64,000 bases of DNA from Anaerolineales bacterium (GCA_036524055.1 DATDCZ010000029.1:1042-65041); one strand, 5' to 3'. Shown: positions 2,907-43,948, counted from the stretch's first letter. The notes: generated from the sequence alone by a model not told the origin. Program-made: numbers and translations.

Positions 2907-3125
2907 TCAGATTATCGCACGGGCCCGGTCGGATTTCAATAGCGTGCCCGATCTTCATACCGTGACACATACTCGCGCCGTGCAGCGCATGCCTCCGTCC
3001 CGGAATGGCCCGAAATCTGGTGACGTTTGTCCATTAGGTGAGTCGACTTGGGACCGTATCATGTTAGAATGCGCATCCGACGTGCGGCGGCTACACTTGG
3101 CAACATACCTCTGGAGCGGCCTTCC

Positions 3126-3845
3126 ATGAAGTTAAGCGGCGCATCGTCCGCAGAGGTACTCGAATTCCTGCGCGTCGTCCCCCTATTCTCGAAGATCAAT
3201 GGCTCCACGGCCAGAAACCTGGCCACCCAGTGCCACTTTCGCCATTTCGACAAGGGCGAACGGATCTTCCACGAATCCGACATGGCCGAGTGCGCCTTCC
3301 TGGTGCGTTCCGGGAAGATCTCCATCATCCTTAACAGCACCGATGGCCGTGAGCTGGTTATCGACGAAATGCGCCCCGGCGACATTCTGGGGGAGGTCGG
3401 TCTCTTAACTCGGACAAGCCACACCGCCAGCGCCGTTGCGCGTACACATTGCGAAGTTCTCGCTCTTCCCCGCGAGCTTTTCCTCCGCATGATCGATGAC
3501 GAGCCGGTCCTTGCACGCCGGATTCTGGATGTCACGGCCCATCGCCTGCAGCGGAGCGCCGTCCGCGAGACCGCCCTGGCATTCCTGGACGCCCAGGCCC
3601 GCCTCGCCCGCTACCTCCTTGCCTTGGAGGCCGAAGAGCATGACAAGGGCTATGTGACCGCCTCGCAGGAGGATCTGGCTCGGGGAACGGGCCTCATTCG
3701 CCAAACGGTCGCCAAGGTGCTGGGCAGGTGGCGTCGCGACGGCTGGCTTCTGACGGGCAGGGGAAGGGTTCTGCTCCTCAACCGTAAGGCTTTGGAGCAG
3801 ATCGAGAGAGGCGATATTTCGGTCTCGCTTGTGTCGCCGAGGTGA
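3126..3845 (+). CDS. Crp/Fnr-family transcriptional regulator (cNMP-binding domain + C-terminal HTH)
   Basis: VPLFSKINGSTARNLA...FDKGERIF.E.D...FLVRSGKISI is a cNMP-binding beta-roll. C-terminal ASQEDLARGTGLIRQTVAKVL is an HTH. ATG 3126 chosen over TTG 3048 because family members start about 10-15 aa before the VPLF motif. Confidence 0.85.
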   Translation: MKLSGASSAEVLEFLRVVPLFSKINGSTARNLATQCHFRHFDKGERIFHESDMAECAFLVRSGKISIILNSTDGRELVIDEMRPGDILGEVGLLTRTSHTASAVARTHCEVLALPRELFLRMIDDEPVLARRILDVTAHRLQRSAVRETALAFLDAQARLARYLLALEAEEHDKGYVTASQEDLARGTGLIRQTVAKVLGRWRRDGWLLTGRGRVLLLNRKALEQIERGDISVSLVSPR

Positions 3846-3916
3846 CAGACAGCCGGCGAACACTGACCTATACTGCGGGTAACGTTGAGACCGGAATGAC
3901 CAAAAAGGAGCCCGCA

Positions 3917-4903
3917 ATGAAGGTCGCGAAGAAGGTCCTGAAGAAGCTCTCCGCAGTTCGGGCCGTCCTGCCCAACGACGAGCGCGAAGTTCTCGACGCT
4001 ATCGTCCTTGGGGAGGTTCACGCCCACAAGTTCGGCAAGGTCGGTAAAGCGGGAAAAGCCAGCAAGGCTGGCAAAACCCAGGTCAAGGCGCACAAATTCG
4101 GCAAGTCCGTCGGCAAAGCCGCGAAGGCAGGCGGCAAGACACAGGTGAGGGCACACATGTTTGGTAAGGTCGGCAAGGTTGGGAAGGCCGCCAAGGCGGA
4201 TAAGACCCAGGTCAAGGCTCACATGTTCGGCAAGGTCGGCAAGGTTGGCAAGGCCGCCAAGGCGGATAAGACCCAGGTCAAGGCTCACATGTTCGGCAAG
4301 GTCGGCAAGGTTGGCAAAGCCGCCAAGGCGGACAAAACCCAAGTGAAGGCCCACAAGTTTGGCAAAGTTGGTAAGGTCGGCAAGGCTGACAAGACCGCCA
4401 AGCAGGTGAAGGCTCACAAGTTTGGCAAGGTCGGCAAGATCGGAAAAGCCGATAAGACCGCCAAGCAGGTGAAGGCTCACAAGTTTGGCAAGGTTGGCAA
4501 GGTCGGCAAGGCTGACAAGACCGCCAAGCAGGTGAAGGCTCACAAGTTTGGCAAAGTCGGCAAGGTCGGCAAGGCCGACAAGACCGCCAAGCAGGTGAAT
4601 GCTCACAAGTTTGGCAAGGTCAGCAAAGCCGGCAAGGCTGGTAAAGCCGGCAAGCAGGTCAAGGCCCACAAGGTTGGCAAGGTTGGTAAGGTCGGCAAGG
4701 TTGGTAAGGCCGGCAAGCAGGTCAAGGCCCACAAGCTGGGCAAGGTTGGGAAAGTTGGTAAGGTTGGCAAGGCTGGCAAGCAGGTCAACGCACACAAACT
4801 GGCCAAGACTAACCAGGCTCCGGCCAAGCTGATCCCTGCCACAACACTCCCTCCGATCGAGTTCGATCCGAATTCTGAGGAGTATCACCCGGTCCAGCAA
4901 TAA
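3917..4903 (+). CDS. Polycationic tandem-repeat protein: 34-aa N-terminal region, 12 x 21/22-aa Lys-rich units (consensus KAH[KM]FGKVGKVGKA(A)K(A)DKT(A)(K)QV), 38-aa Pro-rich/acidic tail
   Basis: ATG 3917 is preceded by AGGAG at 7-nt spacing. The repeat period is kept in frame (63 or 66 bp) over 768 bp, and wobble-position differences between units preserve the peptide. No family recognised. Confidence 0.7.
   Translation: MKVAKKVLKKLSAVRAVLPNDEREVLDAIVLGEVHAHKFGKVGKAGKASKAGKTQVKAHKFGKSVGKAAKAGGKTQVRAHMFGKVGKVGKAAKADKTQVKAHMFGKVGKVGKAAKADKTQVKAHMFGKVGKVGKAAKADKTQVKAHKFGKVGKVGKADKTAKQVKAHKFGKVGKIGKADKTAKQVKAHKFGKVGKVGKADKTAKQVKAHKFGKVGKVGKADKTAKQVNAHKFGKVSKAGKAGKAGKQVKAHKVGKVGKVGKVGKAGKQVKAHKLGKVGKVGKVGKAGKQVNAHKLAKTNQAPAKLIPATTLPPIEFDPNSEEYHPVQQ
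4019..4786 (+). repeat. 12 tandem in-frame DNA repeats (five 66-bp units and seven 63-bp units) inside the Lys-rich ORF
   Basis: Direct reading: units 4 and 5 (about 4204-4335) are almost identical at the DNA level, and units 6-9 (about 4336-4587) are near-identical 63-mers. A degenerate 13th unit starts at 4787. Confidence 0.9.
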
Positions 4904-4995
4904 CCTCTTAGCTCCCGGCAGTAGCGAACCTGGACCCTGCCGGAGGGGCACGGAGACTCCAGGACCTCAAAGCAAAATCAGACCTTCGAACGGGC

Positions 4996-5044
4996 AAACG
5001 TGGATTTTCTGCGGACAAGATTGATGCAGAGAATCCACGTTTTA
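4996..5044 (+). terminator. Rho-independent terminator-like hairpin after the repeat-protein gene
   Basis: AAACGTGGATTTTCTGC-loop-GCAGAGAATCCACGTTT forms a stem of about 17 bp followed by a T-run (cgTTTTatc). Confidence 0.65.
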
Positions 5045-5070
5045 TCTTATACTCGGGCAGGGTGGGCTAT

Positions 5071-5859
5071 ATGGACTCAGACCAGATTGCTCGTGAAGAA
5101 AAGCTCTCGGAGCAACTCAAGCGGCTGATCGTTTCGATCGGTGCCGGCGGACAGACCGTCCTTTTGGGCTCAAGCGACGAGCTGCTGAATTCCATCGTGG
5201 TGGCCGCCGCACGCATATTTGGCGCCGGTGCCGCCTCGATCCTGCTCGTCAATGAGGACGAGCAGGTTCTCGAATTCAAGGTCGCCTACGGCCCGGCCGG
5301 AAAGAAGCTGGTCGGAACCAAGTATCCGCTCGACAAAGGCATCGCCGGCTACGTCGTGATGACCGGCCAGCCCATCGCTACCTCCCAGGTCAGCAAGGAC
5401 GCGCGCTGGGACAAGGAATTCGCCCAGAGCACGGGGTATGTCCCGGAATCGATCCTTGCCACGCCGCTGCTTTCCGGGGACCGCATCATCGGCGTCATGG
5501 AAGTCCTCGACAAGATCAATGCAGCATCCTTCGGCATCCAGGACATGGAACTTCTGGGCATGTTCGCACGGCAGGCCGCCCTGGCAATTGATCAGGCTCA
5601 GCAGCTCAGCAAGATCGAAGGGGCGCTCGTCTTGGGGTTGAAGCGACTCGCGACCGCCGATCCATCCAAGGATTCCTCGGAGATCCTTTCCGTGCTTGAG
5701 ACAGCCAGGAATGACCAGGGCGAGATTTCTGATCTACTGGAGATCGCGCGCCTGCTGGGGGATATCAGTGCGTTGGGCGAGGCCGAACGTCGCGCCTGCC
5801 TGCAGATTCTGGAGGTCTTCGCCAGCCTCAAACGCTCCGCGCCGCGCAGGTTCGGGTAA
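5071..5859 (+). CDS. GAF domain-containing protein with helical C-terminal extension
   Basis: GAF-like core: SILLVNEDEQVLEFKVAYG...GIAGYVVMTGQPI...ILATPLLSGDRIIGVMEVLDK. No output domain seen. Alternative GTG start at 5062. Confidence 0.8.
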   Translation: MDSDQIAREEKLSEQLKRLIVSIGAGGQTVLLGSSDELLNSIVVAAARIFGAGAASILLVNEDEQVLEFKVAYGPAGKKLVGTKYPLDKGIAGYVVMTGQPIATSQVSKDARWDKEFAQSTGYVPESILATPLLSGDRIIGVMEVLDKINAASFGIQDMELLGMFARQAALAIDQAQQLSKIEGALVLGLKRLATADPSKDSSEILSVLETARNDQGEISDLLEIARLLGDISALGEAERRACLQILEVFASLKRSAPRRFG

Positions 5860-5862
5860 GGT

Positions 5863-6711
5863 ATGTCCGCAGAAGAAGAGGAACTGCGCCCCGCGTGGTC
5901 TCAAAGCTTCACGCCGGAGGCCATTCAGCAACTCAACGCTGTTGGCCCGTTCTCCGACATCACGCCCGCCTGGGCCTGGGGTCGTAGCAAAGGTAAGGGC
6001 ATACGTGTGGCAGTGGTCGACAGCGGTGTTGAGCATGACCATCCGGCTGTCGGCAAGAGTGTGAAGGGCGGAGTGATTGTGGAATACGACTCCCGCGCGA
6101 AAGATTCTTACCGCATCCGCCCGGACGATGAACCCATGGATGTCTCCGGCCACGGGACGGCCTGCGCCGGGATCATCCACGCGCTCGCCCCGGAGGCCGA
6201 GATCTACAGTGTAAGGGTGCTCGGCCGCAATATGGCCGGTCGTGCCATTCAGTTTGCCGCCGGGCTGGATTGGGCCATTGAACATGACATGCACGTGGTC
6301 AATCTCAGCTTGAGCACATCTCTGGAGGAATTCTTCGGGATCTTTCATGACCTCGCCGACCAGGCATACTTCAAGAACATGAATCTGGTTTCGGCGGTCA
6401 ACAACATACCTGAGCCGAGCTTCCCATCGCTCTATTCGTCCGTGATCTCCGTGGCCGCCCATGATGGGCATGATCCGTTCACCTACTATTACAATCCCAA
6501 GCCGCCGGTTGAATTCGGCGCGCCGGGGATCGACGTGGAAGTGGCCTGGAACCAAAAGCAGTACCTCGTGTGCACGGGTAACAGCTTCGCTGCTCCTCAC
6601 ATCGCTGGCATCACAACCCTGATTCGTTCCAAACACCCTGATCTGACGCCCTTTCAAGTCAAGACGGTCCTGATGGCTTGCGCGGCCAATATGCGCCATC
6701 GGGCAAACTAG
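5863..6711 (+). CDS. S8 (subtilisin-like) serine peptidase, small, no signal peptide
   Basis: Catalytic triad motifs in order: VAVVDSGV (Asp), SGHGTACAGII (His), GNSFAAPHIAGI (Ser). The N-terminus is acidic and not hydrophobic. Starts 3 nt after the GAF gene stop. Confidence 0.85.
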   Translation: MSAEEEELRPAWSQSFTPEAIQQLNAVGPFSDITPAWAWGRSKGKGIRVAVVDSGVEHDHPAVGKSVKGGVIVEYDSRAKDSYRIRPDDEPMDVSGHGTACAGIIHALAPEAEIYSVRVLGRNMAGRAIQFAAGLDWAIEHDMHVVNLSLSTSLEEFFGIFHDLADQAYFKNMNLVSAVNNIPEPSFPSLYSSVISVAAHDGHDPFTYYYNPKPPVEFGAPGIDVEVAWNQKQYLVCTGNSFAAPHIAGITTLIRSKHPDLTPFQVKTVLMACAANMRHRAN

Positions 6712-6730: not shown

Positions 6731-8500
6731 ATGGGGCAATTCGATAAACCATCCGGATGGTCTCTTGCAGATTTGTTGCCGGCGCCAGTCGAGAAATCGC
6801 TGGAGGAAACCCTGGCCCAGCTGGAGCGGACGGTCTCCGGGTTTGAGGCCATGCGCGAACGGCTGACAGAGACTGTCGCAATTGACGATTTCAACAAGGC
6901 GCTCGCGGCGCTGGAAAAGATCTCCACCATCAAGAGCAAGATCGAGGCATATGCGGATCTTGCTTTCTCCGAAAACACACAGAGTCCCGAGGCGCTCAAT
7001 TTGCGGGACCGCGTCGATCAGGTCCTGACCGATATCGGCAACCGTTGCCTCTTCTTCGAGCTTTGGTTCAAGGCGCTTCCGGATGAGGCCGCCAATCGCC
7101 TGATCTCCAAAACCGGTGATCAGCGATATTTCTTGGAGACCATGCGGCGTTTCAAGCCGTTCACTCTGACCGAGCCCGAAGAGAAGGCCATCAACATCAA
7201 GGATGTCAATGGCATCGACGCCATCGTCAACTTGTACGAGATGATCACCAACGGCTTCGAGTTCGAGCTGGAGGTGGATGGCGAGAAGAAGACGCTCACG
7301 CGCGACGAGCTGGCAAGTTACTACCAGAATCCTTCACCGGATTTGCGCGCCGCCGCGTACCAGGAGCTGTTTCGGGTATTCGGCGAGAATTCCACGGTGC
7401 TGGCCCAGATGTACATCCACCGGGCGCGCGACTGGCACGCCGAGGGAGTGGAGTTGCGGGGCTTCCCGTCCCCGGTATTCGCACGCAACCTGGAAAATGA
7501 TCTCCCCGAAGCGGTTGTGAATACGCTGTTGTCCGTCTGCCGGAAGAATGCCAGCTTGTTTCAGAAGTACTTCAAGCTGAAGGCCAAGTGGCTGGGGCTC
7601 GACAAGCTGCGGCGGTATGACGTTTACGCGCCCCTGGCTCCTTCCGACAAGAAATTCGCGTATGCTGAGGCCACCCAAATGGTGATGGACAGCTATACGG
7701 CCTTTTCGTCCGACGTGGCGGCGCTTGCCAGGCGCGTGTTCGATGACGACCATCTGGACTCTGAAGTTCGTGCCGGCAAACGCGGCGGCGCTTTTTGTTA
7801 CACCGTGTCCCCGGAGCTCACGCCCTGGGTTATGGTCAACTACAACCAGCAGGCCCGCGACATCGCCACGCTGGCACACGAACTGGGGCATGCGATCCAT
7901 TCGATGCTTGCCAGTCGCCATTCCATACTGACCCAGCTGCCTTCCCTGCCGTTGGCCGAAACGGCCTCAGTGTTCGGCGAGATGCTGCTGACCGACCGAT
8001 TGCTGAAGCAGGAGCAGGACCCGCGCGTCCGGCGAGAGCTTCTGGCGAACGCCCTGGACGACGCCTATATCACGGTCATGCGCCAGGCCTACTTCACCAT
8101 CTTCGAGAAGGACGCCCATGACATGATCGCCGACGGCAAGACGATAGACGAGTTGGCCGACCACTACCTGGCAAATCTCAGGGAACAGTTCAGTGATGCC
8201 GTGGATGTCAGCGAGGACTTCAAGTGGGAGTGGGTCAGCGTGCCTCACATGATCCAGTGGCCCTTCTATACCTATGCCTATAGCTTCGGCCAATTGCTGG
8301 TCCTTGCGCTGTATCAACAGTACCGGCTCGAGGGCGATGCCTTCCTACCCAGGTATCTGCGCATCCTCTCGCACGGTGGCTCAACGCCGCCGCTGAAGGT
8401 GCTCACGGAGGCCGGCCTCGACGTCACGCAGGCCGCCTTCTGGCAGGGTGGCTTCGATTTCCTCGCGAAAATGCTGGCCGAACTCGAGCAATTGTCTTAA
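6731..8500 (+). CDS. pepF: M3-family oligoendopeptidase (PepF-like)
   Basis: 589 aa with zinc motif HELGHAIH and downstream E in AETASVFGE; length typical of the M3B family. Confidence 0.85.
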   Translation: MGQFDKPSGWSLADLLPAPVEKSLEETLAQLERTVSGFEAMRERLTETVAIDDFNKALAALEKISTIKSKIEAYADLAFSENTQSPEALNLRDRVDQVLTDIGNRCLFFELWFKALPDEAANRLISKTGDQRYFLETMRRFKPFTLTEPEEKAINIKDVNGIDAIVNLYEMITNGFEFELEVDGEKKTLTRDELASYYQNPSPDLRAAAYQELFRVFGENSTVLAQMYIHRARDWHAEGVELRGFPSPVFARNLENDLPEAVVNTLLSVCRKNASLFQKYFKLKAKWLGLDKLRRYDVYAPLAPSDKKFAYAEATQMVMDSYTAFSSDVAALARRVFDDDHLDSEVRAGKRGGAFCYTVSPELTPWVMVNYNQQARDIATLAHELGHAIHSMLASRHSILTQLPSLPLAETASVFGEMLLTDRLLKQEQDPRVRRELLANALDDAYITVMRQAYFTIFEKDAHDMIADGKTIDELADHYLANLREQFSDAVDVSEDFKWEWVSVPHMIQWPFYTYAYSFGQLLVLALYQQYRLEGDAFLPRYLRILSHGGSTPPLKVLTEAGLDVTQAAFWQGGFDFLAKMLAELEQLS

Positions 8501-8512
8501 GGAGCGTTGGGC

Positions 8513-10297
8513 ATGGCTGAAACCGCTAAAGCTTCCACCTCACCATTCTCGGTCTTCCGCAATCGCAATTTCTCACTGATGTGGTCGGGCCAACTGGTTT
8601 CGACCATGGGCTCTGCCTTGACGTCGCTGGCGGCCTCCATCTATGTCTTCCGGCTGACGAACTCAGCCTTGAGCGTGGGCCTGATGTTGATGGCCACGGC
8701 AGCACCCAGCCTGCTCGTCGGACTGTTCGCAGGCGTGTTCGTGGATCGCTACGACCGGAAGAAGATCATGATTATCTGCGATCTTCTCCGGGCGGTGTTG
8801 GTGTTCCTGGTCCCCTTCCTTGTAGGTCATGGCGTCGTGTGGCTGTATGTCATCGTGATGCTGACCAGCGCCATCGGTCAGTTTTTCGATCCCGCTCATG
8901 AGAGTGTGCTGCCGGAAGTTGCCTCGGATGAGGAGCTGGCTGCGGCGAACTCACTCATCGCCATCAGCTCATTTGGCTCGACGGCCATCGGCTTCGCCGC
9001 CTCAGGTTTGATCGCCGCCGCGGCGGACATCAGTTGGGCGTTCTATCTGGATGCCGTGACTTTCCTTGTTTCGGCACTTTGCATTTACTTGATTCGCATC
9101 AAGGCTTTCACGTCAGACGAGAAGACCAGCGCCTCGATTGTCATCAGCAACCTGCGCGCCGGGGTGCAGCAGCTGTTCAAGACTCCGATACTGCGATCGC
9201 TCTTCACTGCGCAGGTGCCTGTGCTGATGGCGTTCGGCCTGGTCAACGCCTTGTTGCTGCCTTTTGCCATACGCGCTCTCGGTGCGACCGAGTTTGAGTA
9301 CGGCTTGCAGGAGGGACTCACTTCCATCGGTTTCGTCATCGGCAGCCTGCTCATGGCGGGCATATTCGACCGCATGCGCGAGGGTGCGTGGATCGGCATC
9401 AGTTTCTTCGGTATGGCCATCGCCGGGATCGTGTATTCCTTCCTTCACTCCATCCCGCTCGCCATATTGGTGGTGACCATCTCGGGCTTCTTCAACGCGC
9501 CTTCCGCTATCGGGCGCAGGTTGGTGGTGCAGCGCAACACACCGCGGGAAATGCGCGGTCGGGTAAATAGTGTCTTTTTCGTGTCTCGCGACGTGCTTTT
9601 CCTGGTCGGTATGGCGGCCGCCGGGCTTGCCGATACGATTGATGTCCGCGTGATGTACCTGGCTGGCTCGCTGATCATCCTTGTCGGTGCAGTCCTGGTC
9701 ATGACGCTGCCCGGGCTGCGGCAGGAAGGGGCGGAATGGCAACAAGCGCTCGGCTTCCTGAGGGCCTCTGCAACGGCCCCGGGGCTCGGCAAAGGCCGGG
9801 CCGCTGTGCCGGCAGATGTGGATCTACTCGTGGGCCTCGTTCCAACTCTCTCGGTTCTCACGGTCAAGGAGCGCGCCAATCTCGCCCGTTCGGCCAGGGT
9901 TGTTGAAGTGCCGGCTGCCACCGCAGTCCTGCGACGTGGCGATGCAGGGGACGCGGCGTTCTTCATTCTGGAAGGCCGCGTGGCAGCCGGGCTGACGACG
10001 GCGGGAGGCGATTACAAGTCGCTTGAGTCTATGACCGTGGGAGATCTCTTCGGTGAGATCGCCGCCCTGACGGGTTCGACACGCCGGGCAGATGTGGTCG
10101 CCACTGATGCCTCGAAGCTGTTCCAGATCCCGGCAGAAACCTTGCGGGGATTAATGAGCCAGCCTGCAATGAGTGCCATGGTCCTGTCCAAGATGACCGA
10201 GCGACTTAGTATATCCAGCCAGTATGAGCTGCCGCGCTTCGCCGGAGTCGATCAACAGGCGATGCGCGAATTGCGCACCGCGCCGGCAGAGTCCTGA
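8513..10297 (+). CDS. MFS transporter fused to a C-terminal cyclic-nucleotide-binding domain
   Basis: About 400 aa of 12-helix MFS-like sequence (FVDRYDRKK loop motif), then VLRRGDAGDAAFFILEGRVA...GDLFGEIAALTGSTRRADVVA, a cNMP-binding beta-roll. ATG 8513 has AGGAG 8 nt upstream. Confidence 0.8.
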   Translation: MAETAKASTSPFSVFRNRNFSLMWSGQLVSTMGSALTSLAASIYVFRLTNSALSVGLMLMATAAPSLLVGLFAGVFVDRYDRKKIMIICDLLRAVLVFLVPFLVGHGVVWLYVIVMLTSAIGQFFDPAHESVLPEVASDEELAAANSLIAISSFGSTAIGFAASGLIAAAADISWAFYLDAVTFLVSALCIYLIRIKAFTSDEKTSASIVISNLRAGVQQLFKTPILRSLFTAQVPVLMAFGLVNALLLPFAIRALGATEFEYGLQEGLTSIGFVIGSLLMAGIFDRMREGAWIGISFFGMAIAGIVYSFLHSIPLAILVVTISGFFNAPSAIGRRLVVQRNTPREMRGRVNSVFFVSRDVLFLVGMAAAGLADTIDVRVMYLAGSLIILVGAVLVMTLPGLRQEGAEWQQALGFLRASATAPGLGKGRAAVPADVDLLVGLVPTLSVLTVKERANLARSARVVEVPAATAVLRRGDAGDAAFFILEGRVAAGLTTAGGDYKSLESMTVGDLFGEIAALTGSTRRADVVATDASKLFQIPAETLRGLMSQPAMSAMVLSKMTERLSISSQYELPRFAGVDQQAMRELRTAPAES

Positions 10298-10424: not shown

Positions 10425-11099
10425 TCAGCTTGGCGCAGACGCGGCGCCTACCGGCTCCACGAACAACGCGGCGGCGAGATCGTATCCCAGTACGTGTTCG
10501 CGCTTGCCGTATTGGATTCGGAGCGGCCCCTTCGATGGCGCGCGATGGCGGAGTTCGAACTCAACCTGTGGGAATAGGCCAAGCTCGGCGAAGTAGCGCA
10601 GTTCATCGGGATTGTGCGTCCGTACCCGGCTGATGCGGCAGCGCGTGCCGGCCGAAAGCTGCACCAGGCTTGTATCCCTTACCTCGGGCATAACGCCCTC
10701 CTTGGATGGGATGGGTTCTCCATGCGGACACCGCGTAGGATGACCGGTGATCTCATCCAACCGGTCCTCGAGATGATCGTTGATTCCCAGCTCGAACTGA
10801 TCTGAAAGATCGTGGGCTTCGTCCCATCCGTATTTCATCACCCGGACGAGGAAAACCTCAACCAGCCGATGCCGCCGTAGCGCCGGCATCGCGATGCGCT
10901 CGCCTTCCCCGGTGAGCCGCACGCCGCGATACAGCTCGTGCTCCAGGTAGCCGAGGTCCTTCAGCCGCGCCACCATGCGCGAGGTGGCCTGCAGGGATGA
11001 GTTGACCGCCTCGGACAGCTCAGAAAGTCCGACCTTCGGCAGATCCTGTTGCAAGCGGTAGATCTCGGCGGCGTAGCGCCGCATGGCGGGGGTGGTCAT
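10425..11099 (-). CDS. DtxR/MntR-family metal-dependent transcriptional regulator with C-terminal FeoA/SH3-like domain
   Basis: N-terminal winged helix (LSEAVNSSLQATSRMVARLKDLGYL), the HRLVEVFL dimerisation helix and metal-site region HLEDRLDEITGHPTRCPHGEPIP. Confidence 0.85.
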   Translation of the reverse strand: MTTPAMRRYAAEIYRLQQDLPKVGLSELSEAVNSSLQATSRMVARLKDLGYLEHELYRGVRLTGEGERIAMPALRRHRLVEVFLVRVMKYGWDEAHDLSDQFELGINDHLEDRLDEITGHPTRCPHGEPIPSKEGVMPEVRDTSLVQLSAGTRCRISRVRTHNPDELRYFAELGLFPQVEFELRHRAPSKGPLRIQYGKREHVLGYDLAAALFVEPVGAASAPS

Positions 11100-11148
11100 T
11101 TTCTTGAAAGCTTGAATATCAGCCCTTCTTGCATGAGATTTATCCGAT

Positions 11149-11165
11149 TTTCACCCAAGGTGAAA
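11149..11165. promoter_or_regulatory. Inverted repeat TTTCACC-CAA-GGTGAAA in the AT-rich divergent promoter region; candidate metalloregulator operator
   Basis: Perfect 7-3-7 palindrome read directly, between the DtxR-family gene (minus) and the FTR1 permease gene (plus). It does not match the classic DtxR box, so the assignment is speculative. Confidence 0.3.
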
Positions 11166-11284
11166 CAGAACATCACCTGAATTTATATCAATTTTATCTT
11201 AAGTATCTGGCTTCTTCCGGACTGGCAGATTATAACAGGGGCAGGTTGCGGCGATTTCGACTACTTCAAGGAGCTCTCTGAAGC

Positions 11285-12115
11285 ATGCTGGCAAGTATTC
11301 TACTGGCACTACGTGAAGGACTGGAAGCGGCGCTCATCGTCGGGATAGTCTTGGGCGCGCTTCGAAAGATGGATCGAGGCGACCTCGCTCCGGCCGTCTG
11401 GCGCGGGACGATTTCCGCGATCTTCGTGAGCCTGGCCGCGGCCATCGGGCTGACAGCACTCGGGCTGAGCCTCGAAGGGCCGGCCGAGCCGATCTTCGAG
11501 GGTGCAGCGATGCTCCTCGCGGCTGCCATCCTCACATGGATGATCTTCTGGATGAACCGTCAATCACGGTACATGAAGCAGGGCTTGGAAACTGGTGTGC
11601 GCCGCGCGGCCCTGTCGACTGGGAAGGGCGCACTGTTTGGTCTGGCTTTCCTGGCCGTGGTGCGCGAGGGCATCGAATTGGCATTGTTTCTGACGGCGGC
11701 TGCGTTTGCTTCCGGCGCGCGCGGTACGATCCTGGGCGGCTTGGTGGGTTTGGCCGCTGCCGCGTTCATTGGTTGGTCGCTTTTTGCCTCGACGATCCGG
11801 CTTGACTTGAAGCGCTTCTTCCAGGTCACGGGCGTGCTTCTTCTGTTATTTGCGGCCGGCTTGGTGGGAAACGGAGTGCATGAGTTCAATGAGGTCGGAT
11901 GGATACCCGCGCTCGTTGAGCATGTGTGGGATCTGAACCCCATACTGAGTGAAAGCTCGGGCGCGGGTGTGGCCCTCAAGGCCCTGGTTGGCTACAATGG
12001 CAACCCCAGCCTGACTGAGGTTATGGCCTACCTCGCGTACGTCGTCGGCGTCCTTCTTGCTCTGAGGCGCACTGATCGCAAGGCCGCGGCGGCCGCGGCG
12101 CAAGTCCCCGCCTAG
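11285..12115 (+). CDS. FTR1/EfeU-family high-affinity iron permease
   Basis: Two REGxE motifs (REGLEAAL, REGIELAL) in a polytopic membrane protein. Confidence 0.85.
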   Translation: MLASILLALREGLEAALIVGIVLGALRKMDRGDLAPAVWRGTISAIFVSLAAAIGLTALGLSLEGPAEPIFEGAAMLLAAAILTWMIFWMNRQSRYMKQGLETGVRRAALSTGKGALFGLAFLAVVREGIELALFLTAAAFASGARGTILGGLVGLAAAAFIGWSLFASTIRLDLKRFFQVTGVLLLLFAAGLVGNGVHEFNEVGWIPALVEHVWDLNPILSESSGAGVALKALVGYNGNPSLTEVMAYLAYVVGVLLALRRTDRKAAAAAAQVPA

Positions 12116-18053: not shown

Positions 18054-19505
18054 CTATCTGCGGCGCGTGCCCAGCAGGGCGCCCATGATACCGCGGGCCA
18101 CCTCGCGCCCGATCTGACGGCCGAGGGGGCTGTTGGCAGCTTTGAGGACTTTGTCGAACGCCGTGGGTTCGGGCTTTGTGCGCGCACCGGGAACTCCCGC
18201 CGCAGCGGCTGCGCCCGCGGCCGAGGTCGTCCGGGCCTGCAATTTCTCGTAGGCCGACTCCCGATCCATGACGTTCTCATACTTGCCTGCCAACGTTGAG
18301 CTGCGGATGATCTGTTTGCGCAGCTCGGGCGGAATCGGCCCGATCTGTCCCCGTGGTGGAAGCATGAACGCCCGCTCGACGATGCCGGGCATGCCTTTCG
18401 GGTCCAGCATCGAAACAAGCGCCTCACCAACTCCCAACTGTGTGATGGCCTCGGCTACGTCGAGTTTGGGGTTGGTACGAAAGGTCTGTGCCGCTGACTT
18501 GACTGCTTTCTGATCCAGGGGGGTAAAGGCCCGCAGAGCATGCTGCACCCGATTACCAAGCTGTCCTAACACCGTCATGGGCACATCCATGGGATTCTGC
18601 GTGACGAAGAACACGCCGACGCCCTTGGATCGAATAAGTCGGATAACCTGCTCAACCTTTTCCAGGAGCGCCTTCGGCACATCGGTGAAAAGCAAATGCG
18701 CCTCATCAAAGAAGAAGACCAGCTTCGGTTTCTCGGGATCTCCAACCTCCGGCAAAGTCTCAAAGAGCTCCGAAAGCAGCCAAAGCAGGAAGGCCGTGTA
18801 GGTCTTTGGCGAGAGCATTAGCCTTTCGGAGGCAAAAACGTTGATCATGCCCCGCCCTTCTGAATCCGTGCGCATCATATCGGTCAGGTCCAGGGCGGGT
18901 TCGCCAAAGAACATGTCGGCGCCCTGCTCCTGGATGGTGAGCAGACTTCGCTGGATGGCACCGATGGTTGCGCCGGTAATGTTTCCGTACTTGGTTTGGA
19001 ATTCGTGGGCGTTATTGCCGATGAACTGAAGCATGGCCTGCAGGTCCTTGAGATCCAGCAGATCCATGTCGTTGTCATCTGCGATCTTGAAGACCAGGCT
19101 GAGCACGCCGCTTTGGGTCTCGTTGAGGTCGAATAGTCGTGAAAGGATGAGCGGGCCCATCTCGGAGACCGTGGCCCGTACGGGATGCCCTTGCTCGCCA
19201 AAGATATCCCAGAAGGTGACGGGGTATCCCTCGTAGGAAAAGTCCTTCAGCTTCAGCAGCTCGACGCGCTCTTTCACTTTCTTGTTGAGATCTGAACCCG
19301 GCTGGCTGATGCCGGCCAGGTCACCTTTGACGTCGGCCATGAAGACGGAGACTCCTGCGCGGCTGAGGCCCTCGGCGACGACCTGCAGGCTGACGGTCTT
19401 GCCGGTGCCGGTCGCGCCCGCGATCAGTCCATGCCGGTTGGCCATCTGGGGCAGAAGGGCTATCTCTTCTTTATCATTCTTTGCAACCAGAATTGGTTCA
19501 GCCAT
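18054..19505 (-). CDS. HerA-like P-loop NTPase (DUF853 / YjgR family)
   Basis: Walker A GATGTGKT, Walker B LVFFFDEAHLLF, FFVTQNP motif; size and order match the YjgR family. Confidence 0.85.
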   Translation of the reverse strand: MAEPILVAKNDKEEIALLPQMANRHGLIAGATGTGKTVSLQVVAEGLSRAGVSVFMADVKGDLAGISQPGSDLNKKVKERVELLKLKDFSYEGYPVTFWDIFGEQGHPVRATVSEMGPLILSRLFDLNETQSGVLSLVFKIADDNDMDLLDLKDLQAMLQFIGNNAHEFQTKYGNITGATIGAIQRSLLTIQEQGADMFFGEPALDLTDMMRTDSEGRGMINVFASERLMLSPKTYTAFLLWLLSELFETLPEVGDPEKPKLVFFFDEAHLLFTDVPKALLEKVEQVIRLIRSKGVGVFFVTQNPMDVPMTVLGQLGNRVQHALRAFTPLDQKAVKSAAQTFRTNPKLDVAEAITQLGVGEALVSMLDPKGMPGIVERAFMLPPRGQIGPIPPELRKQIIRSSTLAGKYENVMDRESAYEKLQARTTSAAGAAAAAGVPGARTKPEPTAFDKVLKAANSPLGRQIGREVARGIMGALLGTRRR

Positions 19506-20997: not shown

Positions 20998-21216
20998 CTC
21001 CTTTGATCATGACCACCGCGCGACCCGCATTGGCCCGCAGTGGAATACTGTATCTGCATTGTACAGCATCGCCCTGCAACATTCAATGGGGGTCGCCCGC
21101 GCACCGCATTGCTATTGAAATCGGACTCGCGCACCGCGTTCAATCAACTCGCCGACGCTGAGGCGAGATTCCGGGGAGAGCAGTACTGGGAATCCATGTA
21201 TTCCGCTGCTATGGCC

Positions 21217-22122
21217 TCAGAGCAGCGGCAGCAAATACTCATAAGCGCTGAGCGCGGCCTTGGCTCCTTCTCCCACGGCCACAAGCACCTGCTCTGCGTA
21301 GCCACTTGCCACATCCCCGGCCGCGAATACGCCTGGAACGCTGGTGTGGTTGGCGCCATCCACGATGACGTGGCCGCGCCCGTCGAGCTGGACCAGATCC
21401 TTCACCATGTCGGAGTTGGGCGTCAGGGCCTTCTCAACGAACATGGCATCAGCTTCGTATTTGGTAGTTGTGCCGGCGGCGTCTTTCAGGACGAGCGAGC
21501 GGGCGTACTCGTCACCCTGTACCTCAACCACCTCACGTCCCGGGAGGATCGTGACGTTTGGGGCGCTCTTCAGCTTGTTGCCAAGCGGCGAATCGAACAT
21601 CTTGTCGCTGGCACAAACCATATACAGGTGCTTGGCAACGGTAGCCAATTCGCCGCCCGAGCGGAGGGCCAGATCGTCGTCGCCTATGACGATGCTGGTC
21701 TTGTCGATGAAGAGTGGGGCATAGCTCACCGCCGAGTAGCACAGACCCTTCATCGTGAATTCCTTTTCCCCGGGAACGCCCATGCGGACTTGGCGCGCGC
21801 CGGTCGCAATGATCACGGCCTTGGCCTCAAGACCCTGCCCGCCCTTTGTAGTTATGGCGAAGCCGCCATTCTTGCGCGCCACTTTCTGCACGTCATCCAG
21901 GTGGCGGGCAAAGTCCAGGTACTCAAGCTCGCTGCGGAACTTGTTGACCACCTCCAGTCCCCGCACTACCTGGTACTCATGAATCCACGGAAGAGCCAGA
22001 CGGTAGTTGGTCTTGCCACCGAAGTCCTTGGTGAGCAGGAGGACGTTGATGCGCTTGCGGATCGCGTAGATGGCGGCTGTGAGGCCCGCCGGCCCGCCGC
22101 CGATGATGATCAGGTCGTACAT
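21217..22122 (-). CDS. Thioredoxin-reductase-like FAD/NAD(P)-dependent oxidoreductase (no CxxC redox motif seen)
   Basis: YDLIIIGGGPAGLTAAIYA FAD motif and GVFAAGDV near the C-terminus. GLCYSAVSYAP occupies the position of the TrxB CATC motif. Confidence 0.75.
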   Translation of the reverse strand: MYDLIIIGGGPAGLTAAIYAIRKRINVLLLTKDFGGKTNYRLALPWIHEYQVVRGLEVVNKFRSELEYLDFARHLDDVQKVARKNGGFAITTKGGQGLEAKAVIIATGARQVRMGVPGEKEFTMKGLCYSAVSYAPLFIDKTSIVIGDDDLALRSGGELATVAKHLYMVCASDKMFDSPLGNKLKSAPNVTILPGREVVEVQGDEYARSLVLKDAAGTTTKYEADAMFVEKALTPNSDMVKDLVQLDGRGHVIVDGANHTSVPGVFAAGDVASGYAEQVLVAVGEGAKAALSAYEYLLPLL

Positions 22123-22140
22123 GGCGTCTCCTTTTCGGAA

Positions 22141-23544
22141 TCAATAGGCCGACTTGATGGTTTCGAGGTCCACATCGAGCTTGCCGTCGTCCGGCGGAGG
22201 CTCAAGGATGAAATGCTCTTCCATCATCATGCGCGTGAGGTCACGCGATCGTTTTATGATCTGCGACGCATTGGTAAACTCCGCATCGTAGGTAGTGGGC
22301 TTGGTCGCCAAACCCTGTTCCACAGCCTTCATCGCTACCGCGGCAGCTTCACGCGGGAAAACCTCCCAATCATCCATGTCCGGCAGGATGTGCTCCGGAT
22401 CCAGGCGCTTTCCGACATGATCAGCAAGTGCCTGGGCAGCTGCGAAGCACATTTCGTCGGTAATTGTGCGCGCCCGAACATCTAGTGTGCCGCGAAAGAT
22501 GCCGGGGAAACCCAGCGAGTTGTTCACCTGATTCGGGAAATCCGAACGCCCCGTGGCAACCACAGCCGCGCCAGCCTCCTTGGCCTCCCAAGGCCAGATC
22601 TCCGGGACGGGATTGGCGCAAGCGAAGACGATGCTGTCCTTGGCCATGGCTTTCACCCACTCCGGTAGCAGGACTCCGGGGCCGGACTTGGAAAGGGCGA
22701 TGGTGACATCCGCGCCCTTCATGGCCTCGGCAATATCGCCCTGCCGCCCCTCTGCGTTGGTGATATTGCACAGCTTCCACTTGTCCTTGTACTCAGCTTT
22801 GCGCATTTCAAGATCCTTGCGATGCTTGCCAAGGATGCCCTTGCTATCAACCATGAAACATTTCGCCGGATCGGCGCCCCATCCGAAAATCAGGCGGGAG
22901 CATGCAACATTGGACGCGCCGGACCCTATGAAGGCGATTTTGACTTCGCTCATCTTCTTGCCGACCACTTTCAGAGCGTTGATTAGGCCGGCCAGGGTTA
23001 CCGTGGCAGTTCCCTGTTGATCATCATGCCAGACGGGTATCTCGGCCTTTTCTCGCAGGGTGTCAAGGATATAGAAGCATTTGGGCTGGGCAATATCCTC
23101 GAGGTTTACGCCGCCCGCTCCCGGCTGAAGCATGAGGACGGTATTGATGATGGCATCGGGATCCTTGGTGTCGAGCATGATCGGAAATCCATCGACGCCG
23201 CCAAGGTACTTGTATAGCAGAGCCTTGCCCTCCATGACGGGAAGACCGGCCTTCGGACCAATGTCGCCCAATCCCAGGACGCGTGTGCCGTCACTCACGA
23301 CGATGACGGTATTCCACTTGTTGGTGTACTCGTACACGAGCTCGGGATCAGCCTGGATGGCCTTGCACGGCGCCGCCACACCCGGGGTGTACCAAATGGC
23401 GAAGTCATTGAAGCTGTGAACGGTGCATTTGAGTGTGGTCTCGATCTTCCCCCGATAGAAAGGATGCATTTTCATGGCATCAGCCGAAGGTTTCTTGGCC
23501 TTTGCGAGGAGTTCGTCGACGTTCATGGTGTCCCTATCCTCCAA
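22141..23544 (-). CDS. NAD(P)-dependent malic enzyme
   Basis: FAIWYTPGVAAPC, VVSDGTRVLGLGDIG and FIGSGASNVA dinucleotide motif; 467 aa with no PTA domain. Confidence 0.9.
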   Translation of the reverse strand: MEDRDTMNVDELLAKAKKPSADAMKMHPFYRGKIETTLKCTVHSFNDFAIWYTPGVAAPCKAIQADPELVYEYTNKWNTVIVVSDGTRVLGLGDIGPKAGLPVMEGKALLYKYLGGVDGFPIMLDTKDPDAIINTVLMLQPGAGGVNLEDIAQPKCFYILDTLREKAEIPVWHDDQQGTATVTLAGLINALKVVGKKMSEVKIAFIGSGASNVACSRLIFGWGADPAKCFMVDSKGILGKHRKDLEMRKAEYKDKWKLCNITNAEGRQGDIAEAMKGADVTIALSKSGPGVLLPEWVKAMAKDSIVFACANPVPEIWPWEAKEAGAAVVATGRSDFPNQVNNSLGFPGIFRGTLDVRARTITDEMCFAAAQALADHVGKRLDPEHILPDMDDWEVFPREAAAVAMKAVEQGLATKPTTYDAEFTNASQIIKRSRDLTRMMMEEHFILEPPPDDGKLDVDLETIKSAY

Positions 23545-43860: not shown

Positions 43861-43933
43861 TCCTCGCTAGCTCAATTGGCAGAGCGGGCGGCTGTTAACC
43901 GCTAGGTTCGAGGTTCAAGTCCTCGGCGAGGAG
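43861..43933 (+). tRNA. tRNA-Asn (anticodon GTT)
   Basis: Acceptor stem TCCTCGC/GCGAGGA, D-arm AGCTCAATTGGCAGAGC, anticodon loop CTGTTAA, T-arm CGAGGTTCAAGTCCTCG. No encoded CCA. Confidence 0.9.
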
Positions 43934-43948
43934 CTTTGCAGGCTGATC

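Follow-up and report, generated by a model that had tools for sequence, protein, structure and literature searches.

A 328-amino-acid open reading frame (ORF) at positions 3917-4903 (plus strand) of a 64,000-nucleotide stretch of DNA from Anaerolineales bacterium (GCA_036524055.1, DATDCZ010000029.1:1042-65041; hereafter the window) joins a conserved leader to 12 tandem lysine-rich units and a short tail, and belongs to a large, previously undescribed family of small proteins of the Chloroflexota. In the window, the gene order is Crp/Fnr-family regulator, precursor, GAF-domain protein, S8 (subtilisin-family) peptidase, M3-family oligoendopeptidase, and major facilitator superfamily (MFS) transporter fused to a cyclic nucleoside monophosphate (cNMP)-binding domain. 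Because the family is held together by leader, junction and tail, and because of this regulator-GAF-subtilisin-exporter neighbourhood, the likeliest of the explanations weighed here is that the ORF encodes a cNMP-controlled, multi-copy peptide precursor, which would be cut at the junctions between units and whose products would be exported. We hold this reading with about even confidence, all of the function being drawn from synteny and motif logic.

The ORF starts with ATG, and a Shine-Dalgarno (SD) sequence, AGGAG (3906-3910, plus strand), can be read 6 nt upstream of it, the ORF and its SD being as a preliminary description of the same DNA had proposed; a purine-rich SD occupies the equivalent position in all loci compared. 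The leader (3917-4021, residues 1-35, MKVAKKVLKKLSAVRAVLPNDEREVLDAIVLGEVH) shows the highest conservation of any segment when the family is aligned, has no signal-peptide character, and was modelled by AlphaFold2, at low confidence, as two helices (residues 5-17 and 20-30). It is followed by the array of 12 units of 21 or 22 amino acids (4022-4789, residues 36-291; AH-x-(F/V/L)-GK ... Q-V-(K/R/N)) and by the tail (4790-4903, residues 292-328, 37 amino acids, AHKLAKTNQAPAKLIPATTLPPIEFDPNSEEYHPVQQ, plus the stop codon), which begins with a 13th AH at 4790 and carries the C-terminal motif hydrophobic-x-F-D-P-N-x-E-E-Y. When the array is split at AH, the units measure 22, 21, 22, 22 and 22 amino acids and then seven times 21 (starts at 4022, 4088, 4151, 4217, 4283, 4349, 4412, 4475, 4538, 4601, 4664 and 4727). 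Every one of the 12 begins AH(K/M)(F/V/L)GK, which bears out the unit start and unit number described before. Tandem Repeats Finder reported a 63-nt period with ~9-10 copies (score 629) and nested periods of 9 and 18 nt. The earlier estimate that one residue in three is lysine proved slightly generous (30.1% of the array, 25.8% of the whole precursor), and five Gly-containing triplets were counted in units 11-12 where up to six G-K-V triplets had been claimed. Alanine, glycine and valine make up most of the non-lysine remainder of the array. The single histidine per unit holds, with one extra in the leader (in HAH) and one in the tail.

The ORF is coding, because units 3-5 have identical amino acid sequences and differ only by 4-9 synonymous bases, and because the ratio of nonsynonymous to synonymous divergence (pN/pS) between units of the window gene is 0.32 (Nei-Gojobori). 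Differences between units fall at codon positions 1, 2 and 3 in the numbers 93, 143 and 278, and in the plus frame the GC content is 76% at third (GC3) and 36% at second (GC2) codon positions. Neighbouring units are 81-94% identical in DNA (62/66 for units 3/4, 61/66 for units 4/5, 60/63 for units 6/8), as had been remarked. The accompanying proposal of recent duplication or gene conversion held only in part, since the units are old at synonymous sites (pS ~0.50) and under purifying selection; with pS this high and pN/pS at 0.32, the unit amino acid sequence is therefore held by selection. The same pattern was found in 10 of 10 genes tested, where pN/pS between units was 0.00-0.54 and pS reached up to 0.6 (in L005, a related locus from a Chloroflexia metagenome-assembled genome (MAG), pS was 0.475 and pN/pS 0.05). 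The copies are therefore old, and the same peptide has been maintained many times within one gene.

The number of copies is another matter: the suspected instability was borne out, as near-identical strains differ in unit number. Loci L026 (3734-4306) and L027 (6012-6497) differ by exactly one 29-amino-acid unit between flanks that are 98.8-100% identical, and both have a degenerate first junction behind the leader (V-S-T-Q-R-M, without Ala-His). L006, L007 and L008 carry 11, 12 and 16 units, respectively, and L010 and L011 differ as well. Six short-read contigs (L020-L025) encode a GAF protein identical to that of the window, and in each the sequence breaks off within the array; L021 joins the unit types with a single "ADKTAKQV" unit where the window has four. 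Since contigs with an identical GAF gene break in the array, and one of them is joined differently, the figure of 12 units is that of an assembly and may be inexact. Because the array breaks or collapses assemblies, database figures for unit number cannot be relied on, and genes of this type are called too rarely. Taken as a whole, the array shows the pattern expected of a gene for a multi-copy product, that is, a repeated peptide, a dosage that slippage can tune, and a sequence that diversifies provided the processing sites are kept.

The precursor itself has no credible match in Pfam, NCBIfam or the PDB; a Pfam LpxR match (22 bits) was rejected as compositional and below the cut-off. A whole-protein search was dominated by lysine-rich words and returned four true relatives, which share the leader and the tail and not the unit sequence; P0005-P0008 were discarded as K/A-rich compositional matches. 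A word-indexed search with the leader alignment gave only 3 fragments. When the leader profile was searched exhaustively against 1.84 billion representative sequences (E <= 0.001), it retrieved 202 clusters (50% identity) of small proteins of 35-250 amino acids, all with the leader at the N-terminus; their (A/G)-H junctions number from one to seven or more. The leader consensus is KKLSA(V/L)RA(V/T)L...ER..LD, and the tail motif of the family is hydrophobic-x-F-(D/N)-x4-5-Y, which 79 of 150 profile matches have close to the C-terminus, many of the others stopping at contig ends; P0002-4 and L002-L019 share the conserved tail. Relatives whose source organism is named come from an Anaerolineales MAG or from an uncultured MAG of the Chloroflexia. 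The homologues thus did not turn out to be a well-characterised family, a possibility raised in the preliminary description: the relatives, too, lack matches in Pfam, NCBIfam and the PDB, and a literature search found no paper on this precursor family or its cassette.

What these proteins share between leader and tail is the junction and not the body of the units. The junction logo drawn from 12 well-sampled members reads (Q/E/D)-(V/A/T)-x-A-H-x-(F/M/L), in which A and H are invariant, and across the leader-profile family ~12% of junction-context sites have G-H and a few have T-, L- or P-H. Precursors carry 1-17 units, whose length ranges from 9 to 54 amino acids (median 24) and whose bodies consist of 3-4-amino-acid sub-repeats (GKV, GKAA, PKAA, QTAA, PTR and others), being K-rich, Q/T/A-rich, P-rich or uncharged depending on the lineage. 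Most members are net basic, with a family median of +0.12 per residue, and 25% of all units have a net charge of zero or below; those of L005 contain 7% K+R and 10% D+E, and some, such as the units of P0186, are nearly chargeless. Minimal members such as P0207, P0219 and P0255 consist of leader, one junction, a short body and tail, which is the classical leader/core layout. The earlier suggestion of a multi-core peptide precursor with a leader fits these observations: the leader is the most conserved part, a 7-residue junction delimits the units, and GAF and S8 genes follow.

The gene order of the window recurs in every related locus with enough sequence (~16 distinct loci). The comparison covered the window, L001-L004, L006-L010, L014-L019 and L026-L030, together with L005, which is reduced; the order Crp-precursor-GAF-S8 was established from gene calls or ORF lists in the window, L001-L004, L014, L018, L019, L026 and L029, and for L006, L008, L009 and L010 from tblastn together with the promoter and hairpin elements. 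The regulator lies immediately upstream of the precursor in each locus with enough sequence, the M3 gene is present in most loci (absent from L005 and L026/L027), and the MFS-cNMP fusion recurs in L014, L016, L017, L019 and L026-L030. Between the window and nine other loci, amino acid identity is 73-92% for S8, 60-80% for GAF, 74-81% for MFS, 66-83% for M3, 48-64% for the regulator (L019 left out, as its contig starts at the precursor) and 52-89% for the leader, whereas the array can barely be aligned. Enzymes that are 60-92% identical beside variable unit bodies speak for the precursor reading.

In four locus groups (L014-17, L018, L026/27 and L029/30), an Hpt gene and a response-regulator-class III cyclase gene (Response_reg + Guanylate_cyc) lie directly upstream of the cassette, preceded by a large multi-GAF or uncharacterised sensor protein, and two of the four groups also encode a cNMP-binding SpoIIE phosphatase; these upstream regions are L014, 1-5674; L018, 1-5456; L026, 1585-2940; and L029/L030, 1-6464. 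The Hpt/response-regulator-cyclase is the likely source of a cyclic nucleotide. In the window itself, genes for a HAD hydrolase and a Trp/Tyr-type permease stand upstream of the cassette. Three of the six cassette proteins (Crp, GAF and MFS) carry a domain of predicted cyclic-nucleotide-sensing type. Rfam and tRNA scans found nothing near the cassette, and PADLOC identified no defined defence system, with generic cNMP-binding and subtilase matches only and none for the precursor, GAF and M3 proteins; as those matches are generic, the idea of a defence system was rejected. One locus, L001 (ENA contig_64979), has a Peptidase_M42 gene in four pieces, split M3 and MFS genes, a precursor fused in frame to the C-terminus of Crp, and frameshifted stretches within the array, which looks like error-prone long-read assembly and not like real pseudogenes.

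The DNA between the regulator and precursor genes contains a putative operator, a 16-bp palindrome of Crp-type geometry (TGTCGCCGAGGTGACA, 3832-3847) that overlaps the regulator stop codon. Its family form is TGTCG(C/T)C-N2-(G/A)(G/A)(C/T)GACA; with up to 2 mismatches allowed, the window holds no other copy, and it occurs once per locus, upstream of the precursor. A promoter-like site, CAGACA-17-TATACT (3846-3874, plus strand; 9/12 matches in a consensus scan), follows, with a -10 box (3869-3874) that is conserved as TA(T/C)A(C/A/T)T in all loci compared and an invariant spacing of 21 nt between palindrome and -10 box in 12 distinct loci. If transcription starts 7 nt after the -10 box, the palindrome would be centred at about -41.5, as in class II Crp-dependent promoters. 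The placement of this putative site suggests that activation of the precursor gene is autoregulated and of class II type.

A second element, a stem-loop with 16-bp arms followed by TTTT (CGTGGATTTTCTGC...GCAGAGAATCCACG, 4999-5043, plus strand), lies between the precursor and GAF genes. In an alignment of 11 loci, 96.6% of cells are paired, four pairs carry compensatory changes and G.U intermediates are present; the register is much better than slid controls, and the element appears in the minimum free energy (MFE) fold of the window (z = -3.4). The window, L001-L003, L006-L010, L014, L018 and L019 are listed as carrying it at the same position, and in L004 and L005 that place is taken by hairpins unrelated in sequence. 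A role at the RNA level is favoured because of the G.U intermediates and these unrelated hairpins, so that the element is best viewed as a putative partial terminator or stabiliser of the precursor mRNA and is less likely to be a DNA operator. Just after it, a TATACT -10-like box (5048-5053, plus strand) is conserved in the alignments and may mark another promoter, from which gaf-S8-M3-mfs would be transcribed and for which TTGCAG, within the 3' arm, is a weak -35 candidate; the consensus promoter scan did not call it. A GC-rich inverted repeat, CTCCCGGCAG...CTGCCGGAGGGG (4912-4948), right after the precursor stop codon, is also present in the MFE fold.

The neighbouring proteins give the cassette its regulatory and proteolytic character. 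The Crp/Fnr-family regulator (3048-3845, plus strand; Pfam cNMP_binding 1.5e-24, HTH_Crp_2 4.4e-14) is given here as its longest ORF; it probably starts at a Met at about 3126, giving ~239 amino acids as in its orthologues. The GAF protein (5071-5859, plus strand; 262 amino acids from ATG, with an alternative GVG-start ORF from 5062) matches Pfam GAF_2 at 7.7e-18. Its GAF fold is evident from Pfam GAF and GAF_2, from the AlphaFold2 model (predicted local distance difference test score, pLDDT, 73) and from a Foldseek probability of 1.00, and a C-terminal four-helix extension is attached to it. The best PDB sequence matches are the cAMP-binding GAF of CyaB2 (1ykd, 2.2e-16) and PDE2/5/6/10, and the model's top Foldseek matches are 4mcw, 1ykd, PDE6, PDE10 and Lcd1-cAMP; the domain is thus closest to the cyclic-nucleotide-binding type, and ligand binding is predicted on a nearest-neighbour basis. 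The GAF protein is found in >120 database clusters at >= 68% identity, so that the cassette is much more widespread than the small number of precursors recorded by gene callers suggests. Neither this GAF partner nor the precursor family has a Pfam or NCBIfam model or a solved structure, and no paper was found on them.

The S8 gene (5863-6711, plus strand; 282 amino acids; Pfam Peptidase_S8 5.3e-32) starts 4 nt after the GAF stop codon. Its product is a bare catalytic domain with a short conserved N-terminal extension, and subtilisin BPN' is its best PDB match (5.5e-26 over residues 43-274). It belongs to the subtilases (MEROPS S8), as VVDSG (D), HGT (H), NN (N) and GNSFAAP (S) are present in all orthologues; with these catalytic motifs intact, and with neither a signal peptide nor an I9 prodomain, the enzyme looks active and cytoplasmic from its sequence. 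The window protein is 92% identical to that of L008 and 73% identical to that of L005 (9836-10672), a comparison of an Anaerolineales genome with a Chloroflexia MAG. This identity is unusually high between classes and therefore suggests either strong constraint or lateral transfer of the cassette. The M3-family oligoendopeptidase (6731-8500, plus strand; 589 amino acids, cytoplasmic; Pfam Peptidase_M3 3.4e-47) is PepF-like, scoring 536.6 bits with TIGR02290, just below the cut-off of 561.7. The transporter (8507-10297, plus strand; 596 amino acids) is of the MFS_3, EntS-like type (MFS_1 1.1e-35, MFS_3 2.3e-26) with a cNMP_binding domain at residues 466-552 (4.1e-16); the enterobactin exporter EntS is its nearest named relative (114 bits, below cut-off).

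If these elements act together as a peptide-producing system, the following sequence of events may be proposed. A cyclic nucleotide, which in many loci would come from the adjacent phosphorelay-driven class III cyclase, would activate the Crp-like regulator, which would bind the palindrome centred at about -41.5 and turn on the precursor gene, while the stem-loop after that gene would hold its mRNA in excess of the mRNA of the enzyme genes. The prodomain-less subtilisin would then cut every junction in the cytoplasm, probably under the control of the cNMP-type GAF protein encoded 4 nt upstream, which may gate or help it, with the leader and tail serving as docking elements. Two cleavage positions can be considered: (i) a scissile bond after His is the more economical guess, as the conserved positions (-3 to +3 relative to Ala) would then span P5-P2', with Val at P4, Ala at P2, His at P1 and a hydrophobic residue at P2', or (ii) the cut might follow the hydrophobic residue according to classical subtilisin logic, with Ala at P4 and Phe, Met or Leu at P1. 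In either case, cleavage would free many identical peptides of 17-29 amino acids per precursor. The M3 oligoendopeptidase, where present, may trim the released peptides or clear the leader, and the MFS transporter, with its own cNMP-binding domain, would export the product, for which a role as a signal, as an antimicrobial, or in metal binding via the invariant His may be envisaged.

Several points weigh against this proposal. Export and trimming are not universal, because the L005 cassette is reduced to regulator, precursor, GAF and S8 genes, with neither M3 nor MFS, and L026/L027 have no M3. Synteny is documented in ~16 distinct loci, to be set against at least 202 clusters of the leader family. 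MFS_3 transporters are known to carry small solutes, enterobactin among them, and a 2-kDa polycation would be an unusual cargo. Judged as a strict ribosomally made, post-translationally modified peptide (RiPP), the system does have a precursor with conserved leader and tail (the follower) and variable units as cores, but the conserved cassette contains no core-modifying enzyme (YcaO, LanM, radical SAM or ATP-grasp), and it is not a RiPP in the strict sense for that reason. The conserved leader and tail could serve functions other than docking, and the position of the cut is a guess, aided by an analogy: the MycP1 site AVKAA|S resembles V-K-A-H and has the same P4-P2 pattern. Finally, AlphaFold2 gave no confident model of the array (mean pLDDT 53), so that a folded repeat domain is possible; the beta-hairpin ladder that it drew was not trusted at this score and was not used. 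A radical SAM/LAM gene does lie downstream of the cassette in L028, and it is not conserved in other loci.

The most serious competitor, although we regard it as unlikely, is that the repeat protein is an intracellular substrate of regulated proteolysis from which no peptide is exported, the GAF-controlled subtilisin and the M3 enzyme degrading it when cNMP rises. It could then be a nitrogen or amino acid reserve, a timer, a protease "sponge" or a source of intracellular effector peptides, with the MFS transporter in an unrelated or indirect role. The lack of a signal peptide in all three soluble proteins would suit such a scheme, as would the retention of the cassette in L005 without MFS and M3, the established role of PepF-type M3 enzymes (TIGR00181/TIGR02290) in degrading short peptides, and the 3-4-amino-acid sub-repeats, which are typical of low-complexity, slippage-prone sequence. 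However, a mere amino acid store would not be expected to keep whole units identical despite high synonymous divergence, composition differs widely between lineages, and an MFS_3-cNMP exporter, itself 74-81% identical, accompanies the precursor in nearly all Anaerolineales loci.

A different view of the product, in effect a sub-case of the precursor model, would have the histidine define metal-binding peptides that the EntS-like MFS transporter exports as a peptide metallophore, either with an N-terminal X-A-H, an amino-terminal Cu- and Ni-binding (ATCUN)-type site that would arise if the cut fell one residue ahead of Ala, or as peptides ending in Ala-His. The invariance of A and H, the only invariant residues of the units, and the kinship of the transporter with EntS are what such peptides would lead one to expect, and in the window the cassette is directly followed by genes for a DtxR-family repressor and an FTR1 iron permease (10425-12115). 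However, these metal genes are not conserved in other loci, the G-H and the few T/L/P-H junctions break the motif, the ATCUN form requires a cleavage position without support, and there is just one His in 17-29 amino acids; we consider this version improbable. The repressor, a metal-dependent protein with a C-terminal FeoA domain on the minus strand, adjoins the FTR1-type permease.

Slightly less probable still is an uncleaved polycationic structural protein, whether a histone-H1-like nucleoid protein, a late embryogenesis abundant (LEA)-like protein or an envelope-associated one, with neighbours unrelated to it; the first two and an envelope protein had been among the earlier proposals. Its appeal comes from the window array, which is 30% lysine with mainly alanine, glycine and valine besides, from the net basic charge of most family members, and from a weak NCBIfam match to collagen-like Scl proteins that reflects a Gly-X-Y-like periodicity. 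That match was itself rejected as evidence of a collagen-like Scl adhesin (NF038329; SclA/SclB), scoring 64 bits against a cut-off of 325 in a protein with neither signal peptide nor LPXTG motif. The units of L005 are net acidic and a quarter of all units carry no net positive charge; a basic DNA-binding repeat common to the family is thus not seen in the sequences, and the H1-like idea is unsupported because polycationic character is not a family trait. Leader, junction and tail are conserved rather than a DNA-binding surface, and there is no Pfam or PDB match. The LEA-like and envelope proposals likewise find no support in a protein that has no signal peptide or anchor and stands in a proteolytic and regulatory context, in strict synteny with protease genes across two Chloroflexota classes. 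The remaining explanation, a non-coding minisatellite or assembly artefact with one frame open by chance, could point to short-read assemblies breaking within the array and to a long ORF open on the opposite strand, but it is effectively refuted by the third-position enrichment of substitutions and the codon-position GC contents, by pN/pS below 1 in every gene tested, by the conserved SD and promoter, and by a leader and tail conserved as protein in hundreds of sequences. The opposite-strand ORF (3650-4951, minus strand; 433 amino acids, Leu/Gly/Ala-rich) spans the whole array and is a shadow of the repeat, which a gene caller could mis-annotate.

Elsewhere in the window, a HerA-like helicase is encoded at 18054-19505 (minus strand; HerA_C 6.9e-213), with a neighbouring 481-amino-acid ORF at 21040-22485 that has no Pfam match, and a tRNA-Asn (GTT) at 43861-43934 is the sole RNA gene found by Rfam and ARAGORN.

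By analogy, the logic of the cassette read as a multi-copy precursor system is closest to that of cyanobactin-type and Kex2-processed multi-copy precursors, without homology to either. With the cyanobactins (PatE; PatA/PatG), it shares a leader, tandem cores with conserved recognition flanks, hypervariable cores and adjacent S8 proteases. However, there is no sequence relationship (the S8 protein scores 19.7 bits on TIGR03895, cut-off 421.05), the cassette has no macrocyclase insertion or DUF domain, no heterocyclase and no prenyltransferase, and its units are 17-29 amino acids long where those of cyanobactins are 6-8. The host is a member of the Chloroflexota and not a cyanobacterium, and cNMP-sensing domains are placed on regulator, protease partner and exporter. 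The eukaryotic multi-copy precursors, such as that of yeast alpha-factor with Kex2, resemble it in having many peptide copies with short conserved protease sites between them, a subtilisin-superfamily endoprotease followed by trimming peptidases, and a copy number that varies among strains; the epichloecyclins are fungal repeat peptides processed by Kex2 (PMC10540207). Those systems use the secretory pathway and dibasic sites, in contrast to the predicted cytoplasmic processing at (E/Q)-V-x-A-H and MFS export here, so that the likeness is one of analogy and not homology.

Other systems resemble single components. The best NCBIfam matches of the S8 protein are mycosin (MycP; 123 bits, cut-off 278.75) and QhpE (98 bits, cut-off 165), the latter a small subtilisin of the cytoplasm whose task is leader-peptide removal, yet both lie far below their cut-offs, the PDB search ranks classical subtilisins first, and the protein has no membrane anchor and no ESX or qhp genes beside it. 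Among GAF domains, those of CyaB2 and PDE2/5/6/10 are closest by sequence and fold, and the binding of the disordered polycationic peptide P-gamma by the PDE6 GAF is a precedent for GAF-peptide contact; the present GAF protein differs in standing alone at 262 amino acids, in its four-helix extension and in its translational coupling to a protease. The leader recalls those of double-glycine bacteriocins and of the NHLP/Nif11 type in being helical and in its hydrophobic/acidic pattern (E-x-x-L-D-x-I-V-L-G-E) before the cleavage site. It ends, however, in ...LGEVHAH with no Gly-Gly, and the cassette has an MFS exporter and no C39 peptidase/ATP-binding cassette (ABC) transporter, unlike class II bacteriocin loci; an NCBIfam scan of the precursor for NHLP/Nif11 leaders gave no leader model and only the spurious collagen-like Scl matches. 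There is also a precedent, TIGR03896, for cNMP-binding domains beside bacteriocin export genes, to which matches of 38 and 30 bits (cut-off 161) were found here that reflect the generic cNMP-binding domain alone.

On the favoured reading, the genes would make up a multi-copy ribosomal peptide cassette that is specific to the Chloroflexota, is controlled by cNMP and relies on proteases only. Should the model prove right, a single second messenger would govern three consecutive stages in the making of a peptide from one compact cassette, and bacteria would offer a natural example of the tuning of a peptide product by gene-internal copy number. The subtilisin would also be a useful processing tool, having a defined 7-residue recognition motif and accepting nearly any cargo between the sites. 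Such precursors are missed or mis-called by gene callers and broken in short-read assemblies, and they are consequently under-represented in protein databases. The Anaerolineales, which are difficult to culture, abound in sediments, soils and digesters. We tentatively offer, as a more speculative step beyond the precursor reading itself, that filamentous Chloroflexota may possess a prohormone-like system, in which one cNMP, raised by a phosphorelay-driven cyclase, would license at the same time the transcription (through Crp), the processing (through the GAF-subtilisin pair) and the export (through a cNMP-gated MFS transporter) of many identical unmodified peptides cut from a single multi-copy precursor. 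These would serve between cells as a lineage-specific signal or weapon, with peptide sequence and copy number diversifying from strain to strain. If this were true, it would be a bacterial counterpart of alpha-factor and neuropeptide processing and a new, protease-only class of ribosomal peptide pathway.

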